IMG/VR virus record: IMGVR_UViG_2751185961_000011
Strand: one strand, 5' to 3'
DNA length: 27,042 nt
From: a virus
Taxonomy: Duplodnaviria; Heunggongvirae; Uroviricota; Caudoviricetes
The position numbers and the translations under genes are program-made. The first letter of the stretch is position 1; each line of letters opens with the position of its first letter. Below, one piece after another: positions 5,090 through 17,266 of this stretch. Below the pieces are notes generated by a model, which saw only the letters and a program-made list of their open reading frames with translations, was not told the DNA's origin and made no database searches.

Positions 5090-5313
5090 AAGGTGACGGT
5101 GATGGCTTTGGTTTATTTCACATCAACGGCACCGACAGTACCGCCATCAGCTGGTCATCGTCAGAGATGGCACTGGTTCTGGAAATGACAACCCACAGCG
5201 TGGCCGTGAAAGGCATATACACCGCAGAAGACTTTATCGGTGAATACCAGCGCCTTCTCGTGCTGTACCGCGCGGCGTTTCAGGAGGTCACTGGCGGGGA
5301 GTACGACGCATGA
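4948..5313 (+). CDS. Hypothetical protein immediately upstream of and coupled to gene A (start uncertain; GTG at 4948)
   Basis: ORF ends with an ATGA overlap onto the gpA start at 5310. No canonical ATG near its 5' end. Confidence 0.4.
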   Translation: MGGGSPAGFPPEQLARLLPPRCKQAARSITTYGDFSFTVDGRYRVDVKGDGDGFGLFHINGTDSTAISWSSSEMALVLEMTTHSVAVKGIYTAEDFIGEYQRLLVLYRAAFQEVTGGEYDA

Positions 5314-8093
5314 GTGACCGCAATGCACAGCTGGCGTACCCGTGGAACGCACCGCTACCGGTTATCGATCCTGAAACGTTCGGCAGAGCACAACCAACCG
5401 CATTACGCCAGGCCATTCAGAGCTACATCAACGAGGACATTCGCATTGATGCCAGACTGGATGAAGAAACCGTCTCCTTCCTGACAAACACAGACGAAGG
5501 CAAGCGAATTAATTCGCACCTTCACCACGACGAAGAGCGTCGGATCAGACTGGAAAAACTGGCGCGGCACAAACGCGAAAATCCGCCAACGCTGGTATCG
5601 GAAGCCATGGCAGAACTTCGCGCCCTGCCCTCGTTTCTTGGTAACGCGCTCATTCGTGATCTGGCGCGTTTAAACCGCAAACAACAAAGCGCCCGCAATG
5701 AAGGCGTGAAAAACAACAACACTCACGTGGCCGATAACTTCGTTCGCCGTGGACTGCGCACACGCCTGAAACGCATCGAACAGGTGAATGAATGCTTCGC
5801 CACGACAGCATTCAAAGCCACCGCAGCACGCCATCGCCTTGATGAATTACTCATGCTGCCACAACTCAACCGTAATCAAATTCAGCGCCTTGCCACACTA
5901 ACGGCGGCGGCATTTTCCACCGAACTGGAACGCATATGTGATGAAGTTACTGAGCGGACAGGAAAAGGCGACGATAACCTGTTTACCTGGTTGCTGACTT
6001 ACCAGCAGCTGGCGCGCATGGCAATAAAACTGGGCGTGAACCCACCATACTGGCCGTCACTCGAGATCAGACGTGACCGCCGCACGGCACCAGACCCTGA
6101 ACTGGTACCGGGCGCGGTAATGCGTATCACCTGCGCCACCTGGTGGAACAACCAGCTGCGCCACCTCGCTGATCTCTGGCGGGAGGAATTACTGCGTGCC
6201 GCCGGAAGAGTATCGCGCAAGGCATCCCCCTACATCAGCCATGAGTCACTCCAGGAATTCCGGGAGAAACGCCAGCGCACCCGTGATTTTCTCAAAAGCT
6301 GGGACATTGAAAACGAAGACGGTGAACGCCTGAGTCTGGAGGACGTGTACTGGTCAGGGCTGGGGAATCCGCGCAACCGCCGCAACGAGATGATGGCCTG
6401 CGTCAGAGGGATGGAACAGGTCGCCGAATCGCGTGGTGACTCCGCGTTCTTCGTGACAGTAACCTGCCCTTCCCGCTTTCACAGCGTGAACGAGGACGGC
6501 AGCCTGAACCCGAAATACAACGGTGCCACCGTGCGCGATGCCAGTGATTATCTGGTTTACGACGTCTTTGCAGCTGCAAGAAAAAAACTCAACAAAGAAG
6601 GCCTGAGCTGGTACGGGGTGCGCACCGTTGAGCCACACCATGACGGCACACCGCACTGGCACATGCTGGTATTCACCGCCCCGGACAATGAAGAACGCAT
6701 CATTGAAATCATGCGTGACGCAGCAATCAAATCAGATCGCGCAGAACTGGGGGATGATATTTCTCCGCGCTTCAAATGCGAAAAAATCGACCCGGCAAAA
6801 GGCACACCGGCAAGTTACATTGCAACCTATATCGGCAAGAACCTGGACGCCAGCGCCTTCCATAACAATGACCCGAAAACCGGCAAACCTTACGCTGATG
6901 AGGAATCCGGAAAAACCATGGCGGAAACTGTGGAAAATGCCATTGCCTGGGCGAGCCTCCACCGCATCCGCCAGTTCCAGTTTTTCGGTATCCCGCCCCG
7001 CCAGGTATGGCGTGAACTGCGCCGTCTTGCCGGACAGATGGAGCGAAACCCGGCATCGCCAAAGCGCATCGACAATGACGACATTGATGCCATTCTGGCC
7101 GCCGCAGATGTGGGGTGTTTTGCCACCTACATGACTCGCCAGGGTGGTGTGAATATTCCGCGCAACCTGTATCTGATCCGCACCGCATACGAAACCGCAG
7201 ATGAGGCCAATGATTACGGGGAATTTCCTCAACGTATCTGGGGAATATGCGCCCCGTCGCTCGGCGAGCGCTACACCATCTGTACCCATCCGGACGAATG
7301 GAAACTGGTCAGAAAAGAAGCGAAATCCGACAACAGCACGGACGAGGGTTTTGACGTTGGGGGCGGCTTCGCCGCACCTTGGACTCGTGGCAATAACTGT
7401 CCCCGTGTACAGGAAACAGGCAACAGCGGGACAGAACAGTCGGAAGAGCAACCAACACCGTGGACGCAGATCCCTGACGGCGTTGATGTGGATGAGTGGA
7501 TGCGCTCACTGAAACGGCACGAACGCCGGGCGCTGATGCGTTCGCTGCGTGACAAACAGGCAAAAAACAGCAGTGATGAAATGCAGAACTGGACACAGAG
7601 CCGCAAACAGCCACGGCCTTTGCCTGATAACCACGAGTTACTCGCTAAAGAATGGCGGGAGTCTGCCGAATCTCTCGGCCTGCATATCGGTGAACAGCAG
7701 ATGCAGTACCTGTTACGGGGCGGCACTCTGTACGTTGACGGCAGCATCATTGCACCGCAGGGATTTGAAATTGTACGCAAACCGGATACCCGCCCGGACA
7801 GCCGAATCACGCAGCTCTGGCAGCGCCTGAGCCGTAATCACGGCGTAAGCAGCACGGAGATCCGCCATAACCCGGTCGCCAGCTATCTGGAGCAGCTCGG
7901 GGCATCAGACCCCGAAGCCGCCGCACGCCTGGCATCCACAATTCAGCAGGACCAGAACACCATGAAAACTCCCGTTACCGTGCTTTCTGACATGCTGCGC
8001 GCCATCCGTGACACAGAGCACGCACAAAGAATCAATGAAACCACTGAACGCGCCCGCCGCAAGGCTACTTTGCTCCAAAAGAGAGGCAAATAG
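5310..8093 (+). CDS. A: Rolling-circle replication initiator endonuclease (P2 gpA-like)
   Basis: 927-aa ORF. HUH motif HWHMLVF (His codons 6654-6662). Paired catalytic tyrosines Y-IAT-Y in SYIATYIGKNLD (Tyr codons 6816-6818 and 6828-6830), matching the phiX174 A / P2 A RCR motif 3. Position between the early genes and the hotspot matches P2. Confidence 0.9.
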   Translation: MSDRNAQLAYPWNAPLPVIDPETFGRAQPTALRQAIQSYINEDIRIDARLDEETVSFLTNTDEGKRINSHLHHDEERRIRLEKLARHKRENPPTLVSEAMAELRALPSFLGNALIRDLARLNRKQQSARNEGVKNNNTHVADNFVRRGLRTRLKRIEQVNECFATTAFKATAARHRLDELLMLPQLNRNQIQRLATLTAAAFSTELERICDEVTERTGKGDDNLFTWLLTYQQLARMAIKLGVNPPYWPSLEIRRDRRTAPDPELVPGAVMRITCATWWNNQLRHLADLWREELLRAAGRVSRKASPYISHESLQEFREKRQRTRDFLKSWDIENEDGERLSLEDVYWSGLGNPRNRRNEMMACVRGMEQVAESRGDSAFFVTVTCPSRFHSVNEDGSLNPKYNGATVRDASDYLVYDVFAAARKKLNKEGLSWYGVRTVEPHHDGTPHWHMLVFTAPDNEERIIEIMRDAAIKSDRAELGDDISPRFKCEKIDPAKGTPASYIATYIGKNLDASAFHNNDPKTGKPYADEESGKTMAETVENAIAWASLHRIRQFQFFGIPPRQVWRELRRLAGQMERNPASPKRIDNDDIDAILAAADVGCFATYMTRQGGVNIPRNLYLIRTAYETADEANDYGEFPQRIWGICAPSLGERYTICTHPDEWKLVRKEAKSDNSTDEGFDVGGGFAAPWTRGNNCPRVQETGNSGTEQSEEQPTPWTQIPDGVDVDEWMRSLKRHERRALMRSLRDKQAKNSSDEMQNWTQSRKQPRPLPDNHELLAKEWRESAESLGLHIGEQQMQYLLRGGTLYVDGSIIAPQGFEIVRKPDTRPDSRITQLWQRLSRNHGVSSTEIRHNPVASYLEQLGASDPEAAARLASTIQQDQNTMKTPVTVLSDMLRAIRDTEHAQRINETTERARRKATLLQKRGK

Positions 8094-8190
8094 CACTTTA
8101 GTAATCAAAATGATGATGAGAAAAAACAATTACAAAGTTGGATATGCCTTTTCCATCATGAGGGATGAGATGTGAATCGCTAACCGAATA

Positions 8191-8220
8191 TTGTGTTGAA
8201 TAGAATGCAATTGATATAAT
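8191..8220 (+). promoter_or_regulatory. Candidate sigma70 promoter for the island operon
   Basis: TTGTGT (8191-8196), 18-nt spacer, TATAAT (8215-8220) in the AT-rich region upstream of the island methyltransferase. Found by eye only. Confidence 0.3.
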
Positions 8221-8353
8221 TCCCCTTAATTCATTGAAAACTGGATTTTTTGCATAACTATGCAAATATCTATGGACGGCGACGATGTTTTTTATCGGGA
8301 AAACTCAAGTGCCATGTTAAGATTATGTTTATTTTTTACTGAGAAAATCGTGG

Positions 8354-9199
8354 ATGACAAAGCCTTCTCATTTTAGAACCCCTCTTCGTTATCCGGGAGG
8401 TAAGGCAAAATTCTTGCCACATATTGAACAAATACTCCGCAACAATGATCTCATTGGTGGATGTTATGCTGAACCTTATGCAGGTGGAGCCGGTGTAGCA
8501 TTAGGTTTGCTCCTTAACGGTCTTGTTGAAAATATCTTCATAAATGATATTGATCCTGCCCTTTATTCTTTTTGGTTTGCAGTGGTTAATCATAACGATC
8601 TGTTATGTGAAATGATTGATGAAGTTCCTGTGACTATTGAAAATTGGCATACTCAAAAGGAGATACTCCTAAACAATGATAAATATAGTATGCTTGAAGT
8701 CGCATTATCTACTTTCTTTTTAAATAGAACAAACCGTTCAGGAATACTTAAGGCTGGCGTTATTGGAGGGAAAGAACAAAAAGGACCATGGAAGTTAGAT
8801 GCAAGATTCAACAAAAAAGAGTTAATTAAAAGGATTGAACTAATTGGTGCATATAAGGAGAAAATTTACGTATCGAATTTTGATGCTGCAGATTTTCTGC
8901 TACACCAAAAAGCATTACTACCCCAAAATAGTCTAATATATCTTGATCCACCTTATTATGTTAAAGGAGCAGAGTTATATAGAAATTTTTATAAACATGA
9001 TGATCATGTAAAAATCGCTAATACACTACGTGAAATTCAACTACCTTGGGTTGTGTCTTATGACAATGTGCCTGAAATAAAAAGCATATATCATGAATTC
9101 AACATGACTGATTATACGCTTAATTATACTGCACAAGATAAGAAAAAAGGTCTAGAAATTATCATTTATAATCATGGTATAAAAATCCCTGACATTTAA
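8354..9199 (+). CDS. Dam-family (D12-class) N6-adenine DNA methyltransferase, island copy
   Basis: N-terminal PLRYPGGKAKF and AEPYAGGAGVALG (SAM-binding motif I). DPPY catalytic motif at 8945-8956. 281 aa. AT-rich codon usage unlike the rest of the prophage. Confidence 0.85.
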   Translation: MTKPSHFRTPLRYPGGKAKFLPHIEQILRNNDLIGGCYAEPYAGGAGVALGLLLNGLVENIFINDIDPALYSFWFAVVNHNDLLCEMIDEVPVTIENWHTQKEILLNNDKYSMLEVALSTFFLNRTNRSGILKAGVIGGKEQKGPWKLDARFNKKELIKRIELIGAYKEKIYVSNFDAADFLLHQKALLPQNSLIYLDPPYYVKGAELYRNFYKHDDHVKIANTLREIQLPWVVSYDNVPEIKSIYHEFNMTDYTLNYTAQDKKKGLEIIIYNHGIKIPDI

Positions 9200-9216
9200 A
9201 TTTAAGGATGATATAG

Positions 9217-10914
9217 ATGATTAAAGAAATTAGTTTTAAAAAATTTAAGAAACTGATAGATATTGACTTCTCATTCAATGAAGACATCAATATAATATCA
9301 GGAACCAATGGGACATGTAAGACAACATTGCTTCATTTAATTAGCAATGGTTTCCAAATACCACCATCTAGATCACAAAATTATTCAAATAGTAATTGTG
9401 TTAGAGTTATAAAATCTATAAACAAAATAGCCAACCCAAAAATGGAAGCAATTGTTAGGGAATCAAAAAATTACACCGATCCGGCAGAGGGAACAAAAGG
9501 TGTGTTATTTTCTATTAACTATTTGGATCATAGCACACTAGACTTCAGAAAGCACAACTCAAAAAATCCAGACGAAGCGCAACGGTATGCTATCAAACCA
9601 GTATACCCACGCGGAAAAGAAAAACAATCACTTCCAGCTAAACCAGTTTTATATCTTGGATTATCGCGACTATTCCCGATTGGTGAAACTAAAGACGACG
9701 CCCTTACAAAAATTCCGTTAAACCTACCAGAAGAGTATGTTGGTTATATATCGAAAATATATAATGAACTTTTGGGCATTAATATTATAAATATAGAATC
9801 AAACAATATCGGAGATTTTAAAGCTGGCCCATTATTTGATACCGATAACCCAGCAATTGATTCTAATACCATATCATCCGGGGAAGACAATATATTCATT
9901 ATAATCAAGGCATTAGTTAGCCTTAGGTATTATTTTGAATCACTTATTCAATCCACTGATCAAAAAGAAAGCATTCTGTTAATAGATGAATTTGATGCCA
10001 CTTTACATCCTTCTTTACAGATAAGATTATTAGATAAAATTTATCAATACGCAAAAGATTATAAGATTCAAGTATTTTTCACAACGCACAGTCTGACATT
10101 GCTAGAATATGCTTTTCATAAAAAATACCATGTTGTCTATCTAATTAACAATATTACAAAGGCTCTGCTTTTGGATAATCCTGATATATTAAAAATAACA
10201 ATGTATCTGAAAACACAAACAAAGGATGAGATATACACAAGGAACAAGATACCAGTTTTCACGGAAGATGAAGAAGCTCGCTTTTTATTTAATGAAATAC
10301 TTGGTTATTGGATAAGCAAATATCCAAATTTTGCTATAGTTAGTAATTCATTTCACTTAATTGATTGTTTCATTGGTGCAGACAATTTAAAAACTATTTT
10401 TAATGATTCTCATCTTAAGGAAACCTCGTTAAAATCAATTTGTATTCTTGATGGAGATCACAGCCCTGAGGATCAGAGAGGAATTATATCACTGCCGGGT
10501 GAAAAAGCTCCAGAACAATTGATATTTGAGCATTGTGAGCACCTTTATAATACCGACGACTCTTCCTTCTGGGAAAATCAGGATATAATTAACAATGGTT
10601 TTTCGAAAGAGTTATACTTACTCAAGATACGTCCTCAATTACAATCAATTGAAACTGAAATTCAGAAAAGAAAAGACAACCATGAGTCTACATCCGGTTT
10701 AAGAAGAAAATTAAATAAGAAAATATTCAATCAGCATATTGAATTCTTTAGAATGATTACAAGAAACTGGTTAAACAAACCAGAAAATCAGAAATCTCTC
10801 CAGTATTTTTACAATGGATTACGATCCTTATTCTACCGGGTTACACCAACAAACGGCATTGACAGAAAAATTTGGGATTTTGACTATAACAAAATCATTA
10901 AAGAGGATAAATAA
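9217..10914 (+). CDS. OLD-family-like ABC-type ATPase with putative C-terminal TOPRIM nuclease domain
   Basis: Walker A GTNGTCKTT (9301-9327). Walker B LLIDEFD (D-E codons 9985-9990). H-loop-like VFFTTHS. C-terminal acidic motifs VFTEDEE (10255-10275) and ILDGDHS (DGD at 10450-10458) fit the TOPRIM glutamate plus DxD pattern. 565 aa, close to P2 Old in size and in the P2 old locus. AAGGA RBS 7 nt upstream and 17 nt after the methyltransferase stop. Confidence 0.75.
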   Translation: MIKEISFKKFKKLIDIDFSFNEDINIISGTNGTCKTTLLHLISNGFQIPPSRSQNYSNSNCVRVIKSINKIANPKMEAIVRESKNYTDPAEGTKGVLFSINYLDHSTLDFRKHNSKNPDEAQRYAIKPVYPRGKEKQSLPAKPVLYLGLSRLFPIGETKDDALTKIPLNLPEEYVGYISKIYNELLGINIINIESNNIGDFKAGPLFDTDNPAIDSNTISSGEDNIFIIIKALVSLRYYFESLIQSTDQKESILLIDEFDATLHPSLQIRLLDKIYQYAKDYKIQVFFTTHSLTLLEYAFHKKYHVVYLINNITKALLLDNPDILKITMYLKTQTKDEIYTRNKIPVFTEDEEARFLFNEILGYWISKYPNFAIVSNSFHLIDCFIGADNLKTIFNDSHLKETSLKSICILDGDHSPEDQRGIISLPGEKAPEQLIFEHCEHLYNTDDSSFWENQDIINNGFSKELYLLKIRPQLQSIETEIQKRKDNHESTSGLRRKLNKKIFNQHIEFFRMITRNWLNKPENQKSLQYFYNGLRSLFYRVTPTNGIDRKIWDFDYNKIIKEDK

Positions 10915-10990
10915 TGTATTCTAATAGAATATAAACATCAAAGCTATATTTTTTACACATATCAAGAGTAAAAAATAATTTAACTTTTAC

Positions 10991-11030
10991 ATAACGACCT
11001 CTTTTACAAATAAGTAGAAAAGGTCGTTAT
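10991..11030. repeat. Imperfect 17-nt inverted repeat (hairpin) downstream of the island operon
   Basis: ATAACGACCTCTTTTAC (10991-11007), loop AAATAA, GTAGAAAAGGTCGTTAT (11014-11030); 15 of 17 positions complementary. Possible terminator or operator. Confidence 0.4.
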
Positions 11031-11153
11031 AACTCTCATCTCCATAGCATGTAATTTTCTTTGCATATTTTCACATAACAGTCAGGGATGTATTTATAAG
11101 CAACGTCGTATACATAGGCTCAATTTTTCTATAAATAAGCACTCCGTTCGGTT

Positions 11154-11180
11154 TGCACAATAATGCACAAATTTGCACAA
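11154..11180. repeat. Three direct TGCACAA heptamers phased at exactly 10 bp
   Basis: TGCACAA at 11154-11160, 11164-11170 and 11174-11180, followed by a T7 run, at the AT-rich to GC-rich transition before the cos-proximal region. Confidence 0.45.
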
Positions 11181-11471
11181 TTTTTTTGAACGACTTTTTG
11201 CCCTTTCGGCCCGCATGGCGGCTGGATCCGTCAAGGATCGTGCGTGCACAAAAAAAACGCGTTTTCTGCGCGCAGGCGACGAGGGAAGGGCGCCCGAATT
11301 GAGGGGTGGAAGGCAGGTTGCTTTATTTGGGGTCGTATTGCGCGTGATACGCCAGCAGTGAAGCCTGTTTTAAAAAACCACATCAAAACATGGTCAGGGA
11401 AACAGGCCGTCAGAATGCGTCTGGCGAGGTCGGAGATCGGGAGGGAAACGGACGTCAGGAGCTGGAGAGTC

Positions 11472-11494
11472 GGGGCATAAATTTTTTATGCCCC
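11472..11494. repeat. Perfect 10-bp-stem palindrome just downstream of the portal gene stop
   Basis: GGGGCATAAA (11472-11481) and TTTATGCCCC (11485-11494) with a 3-nt loop. Could be the Q-P operon terminator or a cos-associated element. Confidence 0.5.
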
Positions 11495-11521
11495 GGCGAA
11501 GCAGCCGACAAGCGAAGCGCG

Positions 11522-12565
11522 TCAGCTGGCGCCATCCTGAAGCAGCGAATAGGGATTAAAGCGCATCACTTCAACCCCAAGCCATTCATTGACATGCTTC
11601 ATCGCTTCCATGACCGGTTGCAACTCGTTGATGAAAAATACCCTCGCCGCCTTCTCAACGTCACCGAACGCCGCGTTCCCGTCAGGCATTGCCCCCATCA
11701 GCTGAGGCGGTACACGGTGAGCCGCAAGGATATCGTCGCGGGCACTCCCCTTGATGTTAAGGAATTCGTCCTTCGCGGTGATTTGCTGGAACGGCAGTAT
11801 TTGCACACCATCCTTGCCGCCACCTGGCGCGTGCAGAAGGATATTGCGGAACGCCCCCTTGCCACGGGATTCCGTGAGTGTTTTCTTGATGGCTTCCACG
11901 CTTTCAGCGTTTGCCTGGGCGGCACCAACATAGACAATGCACCCGGCATGTGAACCGTTGTCATAGTAGAGCTTGCGGAACGTATCCGCTGAGTTCGACA
12001 GACTCACCGACAGCACCCCACCGATATACTCCGGCATCCCGTAGATTTCCTGGTTGATATCGGGGTTCAGAACGTGGCACACAGCCCCCTTACGGAAAGC
12101 AAATTCAGAACCATCATCATTGAGGTACCAGTACGTATCGAGATCACTGCCCCGCCGCGTGTATTTCGCCAGCGCAGGACGAAGCGCAATGGGTTCACCG
12201 AACTTGTTGCGGCGGACTTCAAGATAGGCATTACCGAACACGAACCAGTCCAGCGCAAACGCGGAAAACGCCTGGCGGGACAGTAGCAGATGAGGAACAA
12301 AGCAGCCGTTCAGGGCATTACGCTTAAAATACAGGGCCGACTGGTGCCATGATGCACGACGTGAGGCGCGAGCAATGGCATTCCAGTCCATGGGGGTGTC
12401 ATAGTAGCGGCCATTATCGGCGCACGACATGTTATCAAGAAGATCAAGACGGCTTGCTTCATAAGGACCGTCAAACGTGAAAGCACTGAGTGACGGCGCT
12501 GATTTCAGTGCATCAGCCAGTGAGCCCGTGCCGCGCTTTCCGGTGTATTTTTTACGTTTACTCAT
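11522..12565 (-). CDS. Q: Portal protein (P2 gpQ-like)
   Basis: 347 aa on the minus strand, immediately downstream of the large terminase gene; size and position match P2 Q (about 344 aa). Basic N-terminus MSKRKKYTGKRG. Confidence 0.88.
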   Translation of the reverse strand: MSKRKKYTGKRGTGSLADALKSAPSLSAFTFDGPYEASRLDLLDNMSCADNGRYYDTPMDWNAIARASRRASWHQSALYFKRNALNGCFVPHLLLSRQAFSAFALDWFVFGNAYLEVRRNKFGEPIALRPALAKYTRRGSDLDTYWYLNDDGSEFAFRKGAVCHVLNPDINQEIYGMPEYIGGVLSVSLSNSADTFRKLYYDNGSHAGCIVYVGAAQANAESVEAIKKTLTESRGKGAFRNILLHAPGGGKDGVQILPFQQITAKDEFLNIKGSARDDILAAHRVPPQLMGAMPDGNAAFGDVEKAARVFFINELQPVMEAMKHVNEWLGVEVMRFNPYSLLQDGAS

Positions 12566-12570
12566 TGTGT

Positions 12571-14304
12571 TCAGAACTCCATTGCAAAGCCACGATTATC
12601 CTCACGCTCTGCGCCGATTGGCTCATTGATAACAGCAAGCATGGTTGCCCAGGCGAGATCACCATGACTGACACTGCGTGAGCGGTCAGTGTCATAGGTG
12701 ATATAGCCGCCGGGCGTCTGTATTTTTCGCACCGATGCAAAGGCCTGTACCAGGTCGCGCTCGCTGCGGTCATACTCCCAGCGTCCGGCACGGACCACCT
12801 GAAGCATCTTCATGACCAGCGCCCGCTTTGAAGCGATATTAAAGTTATACGGAACAGCCAGGGGGAAGAATTTTTTCACTATCTGATAAACCCCTTCCCC
12901 GTTCCCGCCGGTCACATCAATCCCGATATGCTTCACATTGTATTTTTGGGTGTACTCCTCAATCAGGGCCGCCTGCTGTTCAAACTCCATGCCCTGAACC
13001 CTGACGGTTTCCACCGTACGAAAACGCCCACCGGCAACAAGGGGTGGCACGCACACCGACAGCGCCCCGCAGTCCCCCTTCCCGCTGCTGCCGTTGGCGT
13101 CATACCCGAGCCAGACTTCCCTCACCCCCATAGGGCGGACAGCAAAAGGCTTCCAGTCCGGCCATTCGTCATAGCCATCAACACCGCACCCGACGAGCGT
13201 ATTCAGACTGAAGGCTGCCTCACCATCACGGACAAATTCGCACATGTACAGATTGCGAAATTCACTTTCTGTATTTTCGCCGCGAATATCATCAATACTG
13301 GTGAACTGCCATCCGTTAGCGACAGCATCCTCAATGGTGACAATCTGCCGCCACGTTTTATCGGGAAAGAGCACGCCCCCCTTCAGGTGGGCATGTGAAA
13401 CATCAAATTCATTGCGTTTTGAGCGCGGCCGCTCGCTGTTCCAGCGGTCCCCTGTCCAGAACTGATACGCCTCATGCGTCTCACCTGACGGCGTAGAGAA
13501 GTAAGTGCGCGTAAGCCCTTTCAGCGTCGCCATTGCCCCGGCAACCTTCCTGAGGTTCACAAAGTTACTGACCCAGAAAAATTCGTCGAATTTCAGATGA
13601 CCGGTATAGGACTGCGCGGTGGCAGCTGACGTACCGAGGAAGTGCAGCTCCGCGCCGTTGGACAGCACGATCTTGTCGCCCCCTTTCAACTCAACATCCA
13701 CTTCCAGCGCCGCCTGCTGAATAAAATGCTTGAACTGATACGCCTGACGACGGGAGGCGGATAAAAATATCTGGTTGCGCTGATACCCGGCGGAGACATC
13801 ATCACGCAGTGCATCAAGGAGCGCCTCGCGCGCAAAATACCAGGTCGCACCAATCTGACGCGACTTCAGGATCATGCGGTTGCGGTGGTGGCGGTTTTCG
13901 TACCATTCACGTTGATGCCACGCCAGCGTCGGGAGGATTTTTTCACGAAGCGCGACAATCTGTTCTTCGGTGAAGTGATTTTTCAGTCTGCGTTTACGGG
14001 GCTTTTTACCGGAAACGGCCTGTTCTCCCTGACCGTCATTCAGTTTTTTCAGCTGGCGCGTGAGAAGGTCAATTTCCTTAAAATCGCTGCCGCTTTTCTC
14101 TGTTTTTGTGGTGAGCTGGATCAGGCGCGCATCAATGGACTGGGTGACCCGCTGGATCGGAGGTGTGGCATCCCACTCATCGCGTTTTTTCCATGAGTAA
14201 ATCGTGTTCTGGCTGATCCCCATCAGTTGCGAGATTTCCGCAGGTGTGTACCCTTGCCAGTAAAGTTGTCTTGCCCTTATGCGGACAAGTGCATCCTGAA
14301 TCAT
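12571..14304 (-). CDS. P: Terminase large (ATPase) subunit (P2 gpP-like)
   Basis: 577 aa. N-terminal HTH-like YTPAEISQLMGISQNTIYSWKK. Transcribed divergently from O, as in P2. Confidence 0.88.
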   Translation of the reverse strand: MIQDALVRIRARQLYWQGYTPAEISQLMGISQNTIYSWKKRDEWDATPPIQRVTQSIDARLIQLTTKTEKSGSDFKEIDLLTRQLKKLNDGQGEQAVSGKKPRKRRLKNHFTEEQIVALREKILPTLAWHQREWYENRHHRNRMILKSRQIGATWYFAREALLDALRDDVSAGYQRNQIFLSASRRQAYQFKHFIQQAALEVDVELKGGDKIVLSNGAELHFLGTSAATAQSYTGHLKFDEFFWVSNFVNLRKVAGAMATLKGLTRTYFSTPSGETHEAYQFWTGDRWNSERPRSKRNEFDVSHAHLKGGVLFPDKTWRQIVTIEDAVANGWQFTSIDDIRGENTESEFRNLYMCEFVRDGEAAFSLNTLVGCGVDGYDEWPDWKPFAVRPMGVREVWLGYDANGSSGKGDCGALSVCVPPLVAGGRFRTVETVRVQGMEFEQQAALIEEYTQKYNVKHIGIDVTGGNGEGVYQIVKKFFPLAVPYNFNIASKRALVMKMLQVVRAGRWEYDRSERDLVQAFASVRKIQTPGGYITYDTDRSRSVSHGDLAWATMLAVINEPIGAEREDNRGFAMEF

Positions 14305-14370
14305 GCGCCCCCCTTCATTAGCTGAAACAAAGAGTAAACGCCCCGCCCTTTACCGGATATTCAGCGCCGT

Positions 14371-14388
14371 TGTAGCGGTGTTCTTACA
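14371..14388 (+). promoter_or_regulatory. Candidate Ogr/Delta-type late activator site (TGT-N12-ACA) in the divergent P/O intergenic region
   Basis: TGTAGCGGTGTTCTTACA: TGT 14371-14373, 12-nt spacer, ACA 14386-14388, about 73 bp upstream of the O start codon. Confidence 0.35.
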
Positions 14389-14460
14389 ACAACCCCGCCT
14401 TGAGATGCCATCCCCTCCCCCCGCATGATGGAATACACCATTCCGGAAAGGAGATTTTTC

Positions 14461-15297
14461 ATGGCATCCAAAAACGCGCCAGTACGAAAAAAATTCCGCG
14501 TCGCCGTCTCGGGCACAACCATCGACGGACGTGAAATTTCAGGCCAGATGTTGCGTCAGGCCGCAGAGAACTACGACCCGGACGTGTGGGGATCACGGGT
14601 GAACGTGGAGCATATGCTTTCACGAATGCCGTCCAGTGAATTCAGTGCTGTGGGGGATGTGATTTCACTCTCCACCGAAGAAATCACGGAAGGCAAGCTG
14701 GCCGGTCGCACCGCACTGTATGCCGAAATAGAGCCAACCCACCGTATGACGGAGATGTTGCGAGACGGCAAGAAAATCTACTCAAGCATCGAGCTTGAAC
14801 CCAACATTGATGCCGTTGGCGGACCTTACGTAACCGGCCTGGCAATGACCGACACCCCGGCAAGTCTCGGCACTGAACGACTGAAATTTGCCGCTCAACA
14901 GCGCGCCAGCATCATGCAGTTCAGCAACCGCGCCGGTGAAGTTGCCATGTTCACCGAATGCATGGAAGCGGAACTGGTGGCATCCGTCCAGGACAGCAGC
15001 GAAGAAAGCCGGAAGTGGTTTTCGCGCGTCATGGCGCTCATCAGCAAAACCCGTGACACGGACAGCGAGCAGTTCGCTCACGTGCGCGAAGCCGTCGAGA
15101 GCATTGCCACGGAACAGGCCGGCCTTCTGGATCGCTTCCATGCGATGGAAGAGCAACAGCGCAGTGATAAGGCATCAATGGAAGCCCTGACCCGCGAACT
15201 GACTGAACTGAAGGCGCAGCTGAAAACCGAAGACGCAGACAAGGAACAGCGCTTTGCTTCAACCGGTGGCAACAGCCACGCCCTGGCTGATTTTTAA
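14461..15297 (+). CDS. O: Capsid scaffolding protein (P2 gpO-like)
   Basis: Start chosen at the ATG preceded by AAGGAG (inside the 14425 ORF). 278 aa. Position between P and N. Coiled-coil-like acidic C-terminal half. Confidence 0.85.
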   Translation: MASKNAPVRKKFRVAVSGTTIDGREISGQMLRQAAENYDPDVWGSRVNVEHMLSRMPSSEFSAVGDVISLSTEEITEGKLAGRTALYAEIEPTHRMTEMLRDGKKIYSSIELEPNIDAVGGPYVTGLAMTDTPASLGTERLKFAAQQRASIMQFSNRAGEVAMFTECMEAELVASVQDSSEESRKWFSRVMALISKTRDTDSEQFAHVREAVESIATEQAGLLDRFHAMEEQQRSDKASMEALTRELTELKAQLKTEDADKEQRFASTGGNSHALADF

Positions 15298-16456: not shown

Positions 16457-17266
16457 ATGCTGACACCGGCACAACGATACCTTCAGCGCGCGATGGCGCA
16501 TCATCGGGCTGATCCATTCAATCGCGAAGAGCAGCGAACACGAACGGCACATGAACAGGTTCTTCACCAGTTACGCCTCGCACAGTTGCAGCTGAATGGC
16601 GTGCAGTCAAACATCGCGAAAGCGGAGCTGAAGAAGCACCTGATACCGAATTTTGAAGGCTGGATCGACGGCACACTGGCAGGCGACAGCGGACGCCAGG
16701 ACGAAGTCATTACCACCATGATGGTGTGGGCCATTGACTGCCGGGATTATCCGCTGGCGCTGCGTATCGGTGAGTACGTTATTCGTCACCGGCTGGCACT
16801 GCCGGACAACTTCGGGCGCGATGCGGCGACCGTACTCACCGAAGAAATTGCCGAAGTTGTGCTGACAGAAGCCGCCACCAACAGCGAAACCGACTTATCC
16901 GGCTATATCCGTATGCTGGACGAGCTGGATGCACTGGTTCACGACCAGGACATGCCGGATCAGGTTCGTGCAAAACTACATAAGGCGCGGGCATTTTCAC
17001 GGCGCGCATCAGGCAGTACGGAAGACATGACTGTGTCACTTGGTCTGCTGCGTGAAGCCATGCGCATTAATCCGGCAGCGGGCGTGAAGCGTGAAATCGC
17101 CACGCTGGCCAGAAAGGTATCAAAGGTTCAGCCGGAACCGGAAAAACCGGCAGAAGAGAAAAGTAAATCGAAAGCAACATCAGGGCGCAAAAAGCCGACT
17201 ACAAAAGCGACGGCCAGAAAAGCCACGAAAAAAACCGCCGCAAAACCGGCGCGCAAGGCGACCTGA
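16457..17266 (+). CDS. M: Terminase small (endonuclease) subunit (P2 gpM-like)
   Basis: 269 aa at the gpM position, with a Lys/Ala/Thr-rich basic C-terminal tail (KKPTTKATARKATKKTAAKPARKAT). Confidence 0.8.
   Translation: MLTPAQRYLQRAMAHHRADPFNREEQRTRTAHEQVLHQLRLAQLQLNGVQSNIAKAELKKHLIPNFEGWIDGTLAGDSGRQDEVITTMMVWAIDCRDYPLALRIGEYVIRHRLALPDNFGRDAATVLTEEIAEVVLTEAATNSETDLSGYIRMLDELDALVHDQDMPDQVRAKLHKARAFSRRASGSTEDMTVSLGLLREAMRINPAAGVKREIATLARKVSKVQPEPEKPAEEKSKSKATSGRKKPTTKATARKATKKTAAKPARKAT

Follow-up and report, generated by a model that had tools for sequence, protein, structure and literature searches.

The packaging site of a P2-like prophage is predicted to adjoin the variable hotspot, upstream of the hairpin that follows the portal gene

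RESULTS

A predicted cos region lies next to the hotspot

We found that the packaging site of this prophage probably lies at about 11154 to 11309, and that the interval from 11400 to 11500, in which a preliminary description had placed cos, consists instead of the end of a spacer and a hairpin that likely marks the 3' end of an operon. The likely cut site is about 150 bases upstream of the candidate that had been picked there. Throughout, the window is the whole stretch of DNA analyzed (27,042 nucleotides), and all positions refer to it. The window is a P2-like prophage, and the genes that frame the site are the following.

5310-8093: replication protein gpA (Pfam)
11522-12565, minus strand: portal gene (gpQ homologue; Pfam Phage_portal, E = 6.6e-19)
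12571-14304, minus strand: large terminase gene (gpP homologue; Pfam Terminase_6N, Terminase_6C, and Terminase_5)
16457-17266, plus strand: small terminase gene (gpM homologue; Pfam Phage_term_smal, E = 3.1e-38)

By analogy, the large terminase is the enzyme expected to nick cos and the small terminase is the expected cos-recognition subunit. The portal protein is about 72% identical to the portals of P88-like phages (Xuanwuvirus), 51% identical to the SEN5 portal, and 45% identical to P2 gpQ. In the P2 record, cosR/cosL lies between old and Q, and the terminator tQ comes just after Q. The general placement of cos between the hotspot cargo and the portal gene, which the preliminary description had taken from P2 synteny, fits this layout and is correct. 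The interval within it was wrong: the similarity to the SEN5 cos junction and the flanking boxes are found at 11154 to 11309, in a block that sits between cargo and portal gene in the P2 orientation. Similarity searches divided the intergenic region 3' of the hotspot into three parts, which are conserved (11154 to 11287), variable (about 11288 to 11455), and again conserved (about 11459 to the portal stop).

The hotspot cargo that adjoins cos, between gpA and the portal gene, comprises a D12 methyltransferase (8354 to 9199), which matches PADLOC PD-Lambda-5_B (E = 1e-121), and an AAA ATPase of 565 amino acids (9217 to 10914), which is of the AAA_15/AAA_21 type with weaker matches to AriA, PtuA, and GajA-type ATPases. 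Judged from these matches, the two genes (8354 to 10914) probably form a two-gene defence system. The DNA 3' of the ATPase gene (10915 to 11150) is AT-rich and non-coding. Two plus-strand open reading frames were set aside on position, since the one at 11244 to 11480 would cross the predicted cos and the one at 11390 to 11953 is antisense to the portal gene.

Anatomy of the predicted cos region

The region from the first box to the hairpin was read as follows.

11154, 11164, and 11174 (to 11180), plus strand: three phased TGCACAA boxes at 10-bp spacing, found by direct-repeat search
11181-11244, plus strand: a T7 run, then a GC-rich spacer with the short dyads CCGCATGGCGG and GGATCCGTCAAGGATC
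11245-11274, plus strand: left arm of the cos core, with a fourth TGCAC box, an A8 run, the palindrome AAAACGCGTTTT (11254-11265), and CTGCGCGCA
11275-11293, plus strand: predicted cohesive end, GGCGACGAGGGAAGGGCGC; in alignment, the SEN5 cohesive end begins at 11275
11294-11309, plus strand: right flank of the cos core, CCGAATTGAGGGGTGG, in which TGAGGGGTGG is a SEN5 motif at equal offset
11310-11458, no strand: variable spacer from cos to the portal-operon hairpin, with the earlier candidate (11423-11450) and a 34-nt patch (11425-11458)
11471-11495, minus strand: perfect hairpin with 11-bp arms (11471-11481 and 11485-11495; 100% complementary) and a 3-nt loop

The box array at 11154 to 11180 bounds the conserved cos block on its left and, by analogy, is a proposed binding array for the small terminase (gpM). 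It is the sole triple TGCAY array on either strand of the 27-kb window (shuffle mean, 0.01), and the full composite pattern of boxes plus cohesive-end-like sequence also occurs once in the window. The spacer that follows differs in sequence by lineage; in an anchored stack of 30 cos regions, the distance of 71 nt from the third to the fourth box is kept. We make no structural claim for the spacer dyads, because a single-stranded DNA fold of 11195 to 11300 was no better than folds of shuffled sequences (z = -0.6).

The fourth box (11245) is 30 nt from the cohesive end in the window, compared with 29 nt in P2, P4, 186, and SEN5 and 31 nt in P88-type phages, and the left arm aligns with TGCACAAAAAAGCGGGGTTTCTGCGTGCG of SEN5. 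A terminator scan called a weak terminator-like site on the minus strand of this arm. There, the dyad and A8 run at 11257 to 11273 read as a weak terminator-like hairpin followed by U8, and a comparable dyad with T's after it occupies the matching position in P2. This dyad may stop leftward transcription that crosses cos, or it may be a mere part of the terminase site.

The predicted cohesive end is G-rich, starts with GGCGA, and is homologous in position to the 19-mers annotated as cos in the P2, P4, and 186 records. Its agreement with the P2 19-mer (13 of 19 positions) does not surpass the best matches that arise by chance in the window; with the P88-type 19-mer GGTGACGGGGGAACAGCCC it agrees at 14 of 19. 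It is identical in IMG/VR locus L065, the closest relative found (99.4% identity over 8001 to 11424 and 96% over 11459 to 14998), and in the EC2 prophage (L127; 95% identity across the portal-terminase region). Assuming, by analogy, a 19-nt 5' overhang at 11275 to 11293, we infer nicks at 11274/11275 on the top strand and 11293/11294 on the bottom strand, each within 2 nt. The register is uncertain by 1 to 2 nt because the P88-type offsets differ by 2.

Box offsets and an alignment with SEN5 carry the prediction

The records of P2, P4, 186, and SEN5 all start at the cohesive end, and we read their layouts after joining the record ends. P2, P4, and 186 share a layout that starts with three TGCAT boxes and a GC-rich, variable spacer; a fourth TGCAT box, with TAAAA and a short dyad after it, then leads to the 19-nt cohesive end and GCGCGC. 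The offsets of the boxes from the first cohesive-end base are as follows.

P2: -123, -111, -101, and -29
P4 and 186: -124, -111, -101, and -29
SEN5: -121, -111, -101, and -29 (also -134 and -37)
Window (position 0 at 11275): -121, -111, -101, and -30
P88-type phages and the satellite-like element described below: -123, -113, -103, and -31

The SEN5 cos junction aligned to 11245 to 11309 with a score of 55, compared with 25.8 ± 1.8 (maximum, 32) for shuffled sequences. The SEN5 record starts at the 19-mer GGCGAGGCGGGGGAACGAG, and the sticky ends of SEN4 and SEN5 have been reported (PMC5261728). A profile search (nhmmer) with the cos regions of P2, P4, and 186 gave no significant match in the window. 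Nor did a direct search succeed: with up to three mismatches allowed, the P2 19-mer was not found in the window, and when the P2 cos junction was aligned locally to 11100 to 11525, the score was 21, which is noise against shuffles of 19.0 ± 2.4 (maximum, 26). Therefore, the link to P2 is made through architecture and the SEN5 bridge.

We then looked at how widely this layout recurs in 79 usable P2-like prophage loci from many genera, which were fetched via their portal genes. The -29 box with GGYG…GGG was found downstream of the portal gene in 53 of these diverse prophages, and the boxes at -124, -111, and -101 recur in them though they were outside the search pattern. The DNA from 11154 to 11287 is present at about 92% identity in about 1,165 of 5,426 complete E. 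coli genomes. When 112 P88-type loci were anchored upstream, column conservation rose from about 0.4 to more than 0.9 exactly at the first box; thus, the variable hotspot ends at that box. The columns of the 19-mer and their immediate neighbours were the most conserved in these loci (at least 0.99), and the 19-mer read GGTGACGGGGGAACAGCCC in 110 of the 112.

A satellite-like element shares the cos block

In E. coli 600468, an element of about 12.5 kb (L125 and L212; NZ_CP025849.1, about 553,800 to 566,400) occupies the interval from gcd to hpt. Its genes include a tyrosine integrase, an HTH regulator, an Icd-like gene, a toprim primase, and a second integrase-family gene. It also carries a P88-type cos block, Ogr/Delta, a 236-amino-acid protein of no assigned function, MazEF, and a P2-family major capsid protein of 423 amino acids whose N terminus is longer by about 120 residues; genes for a portal, a terminase, or tail proteins were not found in it. 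When window positions 8001 to 15000 were compared with the element by blastn, the sole homology was the cos block, at 77% identity over 11154 to 11287. The homology of the element to P88-type phages extends about 45 nt beyond the start of the 19-mer, and the P88-type counterpart of the right flank (…TTTCAGGGGGTAAAT) is the last part held in common.

P4 and P2 have cos alone in common (PMC9122126). The E. coli 600468 element resembles P4 in this respect. Its gene content suggests a satellite-like element of P4 size that would bring its own P2-type capsid gene.

The earlier candidate lies at the end of a variable spacer

The string that had been proposed as the cohesive end is present at 11423 to 11450 and reads GGCGAGGTCGGAGATCGGGAGGGAAACG. 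Its resemblance to the P2 cohesive end did not hold up. The P2-family 19-nt consensus used in this test is G-rich and close to GGCG(A/T)GGCGGGGAAAGCA(C/T), and the string matches the P2 19-mer at 10 of 19 positions without gaps, which is within chance: it falls outside the eight best ungapped matches on its strand, and the best in the window reach 14 of 19, all inside genes. Alignment with the P2 and 186 cos sequences showed no cos similarity in 11400 to 11500. None of the flanking elements of a P2-family cos is present upstream of 11423, where there are no YGCAY boxes at about 29, 101, 111, or 121 to 124 nt and no YGCAY at all in 11295 to 11422.

The GGCGAGG start is also not conserved in the nearest relatives. 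In L065 and EC2, 137 unrelated nucleotides stand in place of the 34-nt patch, and these prophages read TCTGGTTGAGTTTTACGGGGTCGGG where the window has TCTGGCGAGGTCGG. Between 11288 and about 11455, the window has no homology to P88-type phages. A common terminase should mean a common recognition site, and L065 and EC2 do not have this string; it is almost certainly not cos. In the overall reading, which we hold with high confidence, it is most likely a chance resemblance at the end of a fast-evolving non-coding spacer.

The position of this spacer, between cos and the portal gene, is described as a known insertion site in 186-related prophages in a passage of PMC5694545 that cites Dodd and Egan 1996. 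Some relatives have about 600 extra nucleotides within it. In about 17 of 120 IMG/VR P88-type loci (L012, L024, L037, L051, L053, and others), the portal gene lies about 1,017 nt past the anchor, where the usual distance is 410 nt, implying from these distances a putative insertion of about 600 bp between cos and portal gene. L070 has no portal gene within 7 kb downstream of the cos block. In the window itself, an imperfect direct repeat with 75% identity links 11398 to 11413 and 11443 to 11458 (GGAAACAGGCCGTCAG and GGGAAACGGACGTCAG), and its second copy falls in the 34-nt patch unique to this prophage. This suggests that a local duplication may have accompanied the loss of the roughly 137 nt seen in relatives.

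Records and contigs examined for physical ends

The sole virion-derived relative in the phage database is P88_4B11 (LR595891.1; L003 and L004), and its record starts in the middle of the cos block, not at the predicted cos. We regard this start as probably arbitrary, the record being an exact circular permutation. The predicted cos site is not the end of any of the 120 IMG/VR loci, and none of 115 metagenome contigs that contain the P88-type 19-mer starts at it. Two phage-sized metagenome contigs end shortly after the 19-mer, one by 3 nt (L298; PPYF01370356.1, 32,523 nt) and one by 22 nt (L314; ERZ1643251 NODE-1134, 31,753 nt). These ends are weakly suggestive: the DNA may physically end there, or the assemblies may have broken off where strains diverge. 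A literature search on P88_4B11 and Xuanwuvirus cos found no published mapping of P88-type ends.

Alternative readings of the packaging site

We considered three alternatives to a working cos at 11154 to 11309. We give almost no credence to the reading that the cohesive end is GGCGAGGTCGGAGATCGGGAGGGAAACG at 11423 to 11450. In its favor, the string has the GGCGAGG start and a GGGAAA motif in common with the P2 cos and falls in the interval from hotspot to portal gene. However, besides a P2 match within chance and the missing TGCAY boxes at -29, -101, and -111, it sits in a patch that is swapped for 137 nt in relatives whose terminase genes are about 95 to 96% identical, and it is common neither to P88-type phages nor to the satellite-like element of E. 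coli 600468. A cut at about 11199/11200, between GAACGACTTTT and TGCCCTTT, would agree with LR595891, whose first and last bases correspond to 11200 and 11199, respectively, and it would fall in non-coding DNA inside the conserved block. This is very improbable: the circular permutation has no terminal repeat or gap, so that its start may be arbitrary, nothing at that point resembles a P2-family cohesive end, and the box offsets and SEN5 alignment put the cut 75 nt farther right.

The remaining alternative is that 11154 to 11309 is the decayed, non-working cos of a defective prophage. Of the 19 bases of the predicted cohesive end, 5 depart from the P88-type consensus and 6 from P2, and a deletion adjoins the block in the window. 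We consider decay improbable nevertheless. L065 and EC2 carry exactly this 19-mer and right flank, while EC2 departs from the window in the left half of the block. Matches that span 80% or more of 11140 to 11320 exist in about 49 complete E. coli genomes, all box positions are intact, and the portal, terminase, scaffold, and capsid open reading frames of the window are full length. A working cos at 11154 to 11309 remains the reading that we prefer.

A hairpin follows the portal gene

The preliminary description had also pointed to a perfect palindrome just 3' of the portal stop. It is there and reads GGGGCATAAATTTTTTATGCCCC at 11472 to 11494, and the reported length was short by one pair on each side. 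The complete hairpin (11471 to 11495) starts 27 nt beyond the portal stop codon. Folded as RNA in a 67-nt context, it reached -25 kcal/mol (z = -3.0 versus shuffles), which is more than chance. The hairpin and its flanks (about 11459 to 11524, up to the portal stop codon) are almost identical in P88-type phages despite the roughly 72% identity of the portal. There is no U-tract 3' of the stem on either strand, where the sequence is ACUCUCC (minus) or GCGAAGC (plus); thus, the hairpin fails the usual definition of an intrinsic terminator. The terminator scan did not call it, and Rfam gave no match over 10900 to 11600.

The position of the hairpin is that of the annotated terminators tQ of P2 and tW of 186. 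Relatives from other genera with an equivalent cos block have unrelated strong hairpins at this place, many of them with T-runs, as in canonical terminators. The satellite-like element of E. coli 600468 has no such hairpin, and therefore the hairpin is unlikely to be needed for packaging. We moderately favor its being the 3'-end hairpin of the leftward late P-Q (terminase-portal) operon, where its role could be transcription termination, protection of the transcript end, or both. There is a small chance that it is a DNA-level site instead, either a protein-binding palindrome or an accessory packaging signal like lambda cosQ. A perfect 11-bp dyad with no U-tract would suit such a site, as would a nucleotide conservation across lineages far above that of the adjacent portal gene. 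However, the cos block occurs in the satellite-like element without the hairpin, other-genus relatives keep the block yet have unrelated hairpins, and P2 and 186 have annotated terminators there. All three observations argue against a DNA-level site.

DISCUSSION

In P2, gpM recognizes cos and gpP nicks the two strands 19 nt apart. If the window prophage follows P2, gpM would bind the phased box array on the hotspot side of cos, and gpP would then make staggered nicks at about 11274/11275 (top strand) and about 11293/11294 (bottom strand), yielding 5' cohesive ends. The left end of the virion DNA would be 11275, with 5'-GGCGACGAGGG running into the portal gene.

Overall, the region from 11154 to 11495 is ordinary P2-family anatomy, to which this analysis adds a corrected site, boxes at fixed offsets, and a satellite-like element that shares cos. 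With cos correctly placed, the P2-type defence hotspot has a fixed right border, at the first TGCAC box, and annotators of P88-like and related phages know which genome ends to expect. The pattern of boxes and cohesive end is also a short searchable signature for satellites that hijack such phages.

In 1990, Ziermann and Calendar reportedly defined a 55-bp core of the P2-family cos and a functional fragment of 125 bp. Our literature search on TGCAT boxes in cos, whose scope did not take in that paper, found no description of them. We tentatively suggest that the P2-family cos is a composite of about 150 bp, in which the core is joined by upstream YGCAY boxes at -124, -111, and -101 and by the -29 box, making up a cosB-like platform on which the small terminase would land. 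The arrangement would extend from Enterobacteriaceae to Burkholderiales and would be copied by satellites. The lineage of the window, with its TGCACAA boxes and diverged cohesive end, would in that case represent a distinct packaging-specificity group that has satellites of its own, including a P4-sized element that carries a P2-family capsid gene.

We also observed a mosaic breakpoint at the predicted cos, at about 11266 to 11290. To its left (11154 to 11287), the window is 92% identical to P88-type phages and, by eye, about 75% identical to EC2. The resemblance is reversed from GGCGACG rightwards, where the window is nearly the same as EC2 and unlike P88-type phages. It has been suggested that recombination at or near cos drives hotspot exchange (PMC9122126), and the breakpoint fits this suggestion.

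Comparison with known systems

Among known packaging sites, the cos of lambda has the order cosQ-cosN-cosB; gpNu1, the small terminase, binds its R sites, and the overhang is 12 nt long. The analogy with the window is one of working, in that a nicking site is flanked on one side by short phased repeats. There is no sequence relationship, the terminases belong to different families, and the role of the window boxes is putative.

The 19-nt 5' cohesive ends of P2, 186, and P4 are GGCGAGGCGGGGAAAGCAC and GGCGTGGCGGGGAAAGCAT. The cos of these phages resembles that of the window in its location between hotspot and portal gene, its orientation, its near-equal box offsets (-121 to -124, -111, -101, and -29/-30), and the A-run and dyad before a G-rich GGCGA sequence; each is shared with a satellite or satellite-like element. 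However, the boxes are TGCACAA in the window and TGCAT in P2, 186, and P4, the 19-mers match at 13 of 19 positions, and GCGCGC is on the left flank in the window but on the right flank in the others. Similarity does not reach the profile level, and the ends of the window are predicted whereas theirs are annotated as cos. Like tQ of P2 and tW of 186, the window has a strong hairpin a few tens of nucleotides after the portal stop, in the interval between portal gene and cos; unlike these intrinsic terminators, it has no U-tract.

A bridge to reported ends is the cos of SEN4/SEN5 (Senquatrovirus), with sticky ends ggcgaggcgggggaacgag (PMC5261728), of which -29 to +36 aligns significantly with 11245 to 11309. 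SEN5 and the window have in common TGCAC, an A-run, and TTTCTGCG.GC on the left, TGAGGGGTGG on the right, and near-equal box offsets. They differ in the cohesive end, which has diverged to GGCGACGAGGGAAGGGCGC in the window, and in the portal protein, with its 51% identity. P88-type (Xuanwuvirus) prophages, whose cos block occurs in E. coli and related genera, are about 92% identical to the window over 11154 to 11287 and have the same succession of boxes, spacer, and fourth box, then the same hairpin before the portal gene. From about 11288 rightwards, however, the window follows the EC2/L065-type lineage, with GGCGACGAGGGAAGGGCGC in place of GGTGACGGGGGAACAGCCC as its 19-mer and portal and terminase genes that are about 70% identical to those of P88-type prophages at the nucleotide level.
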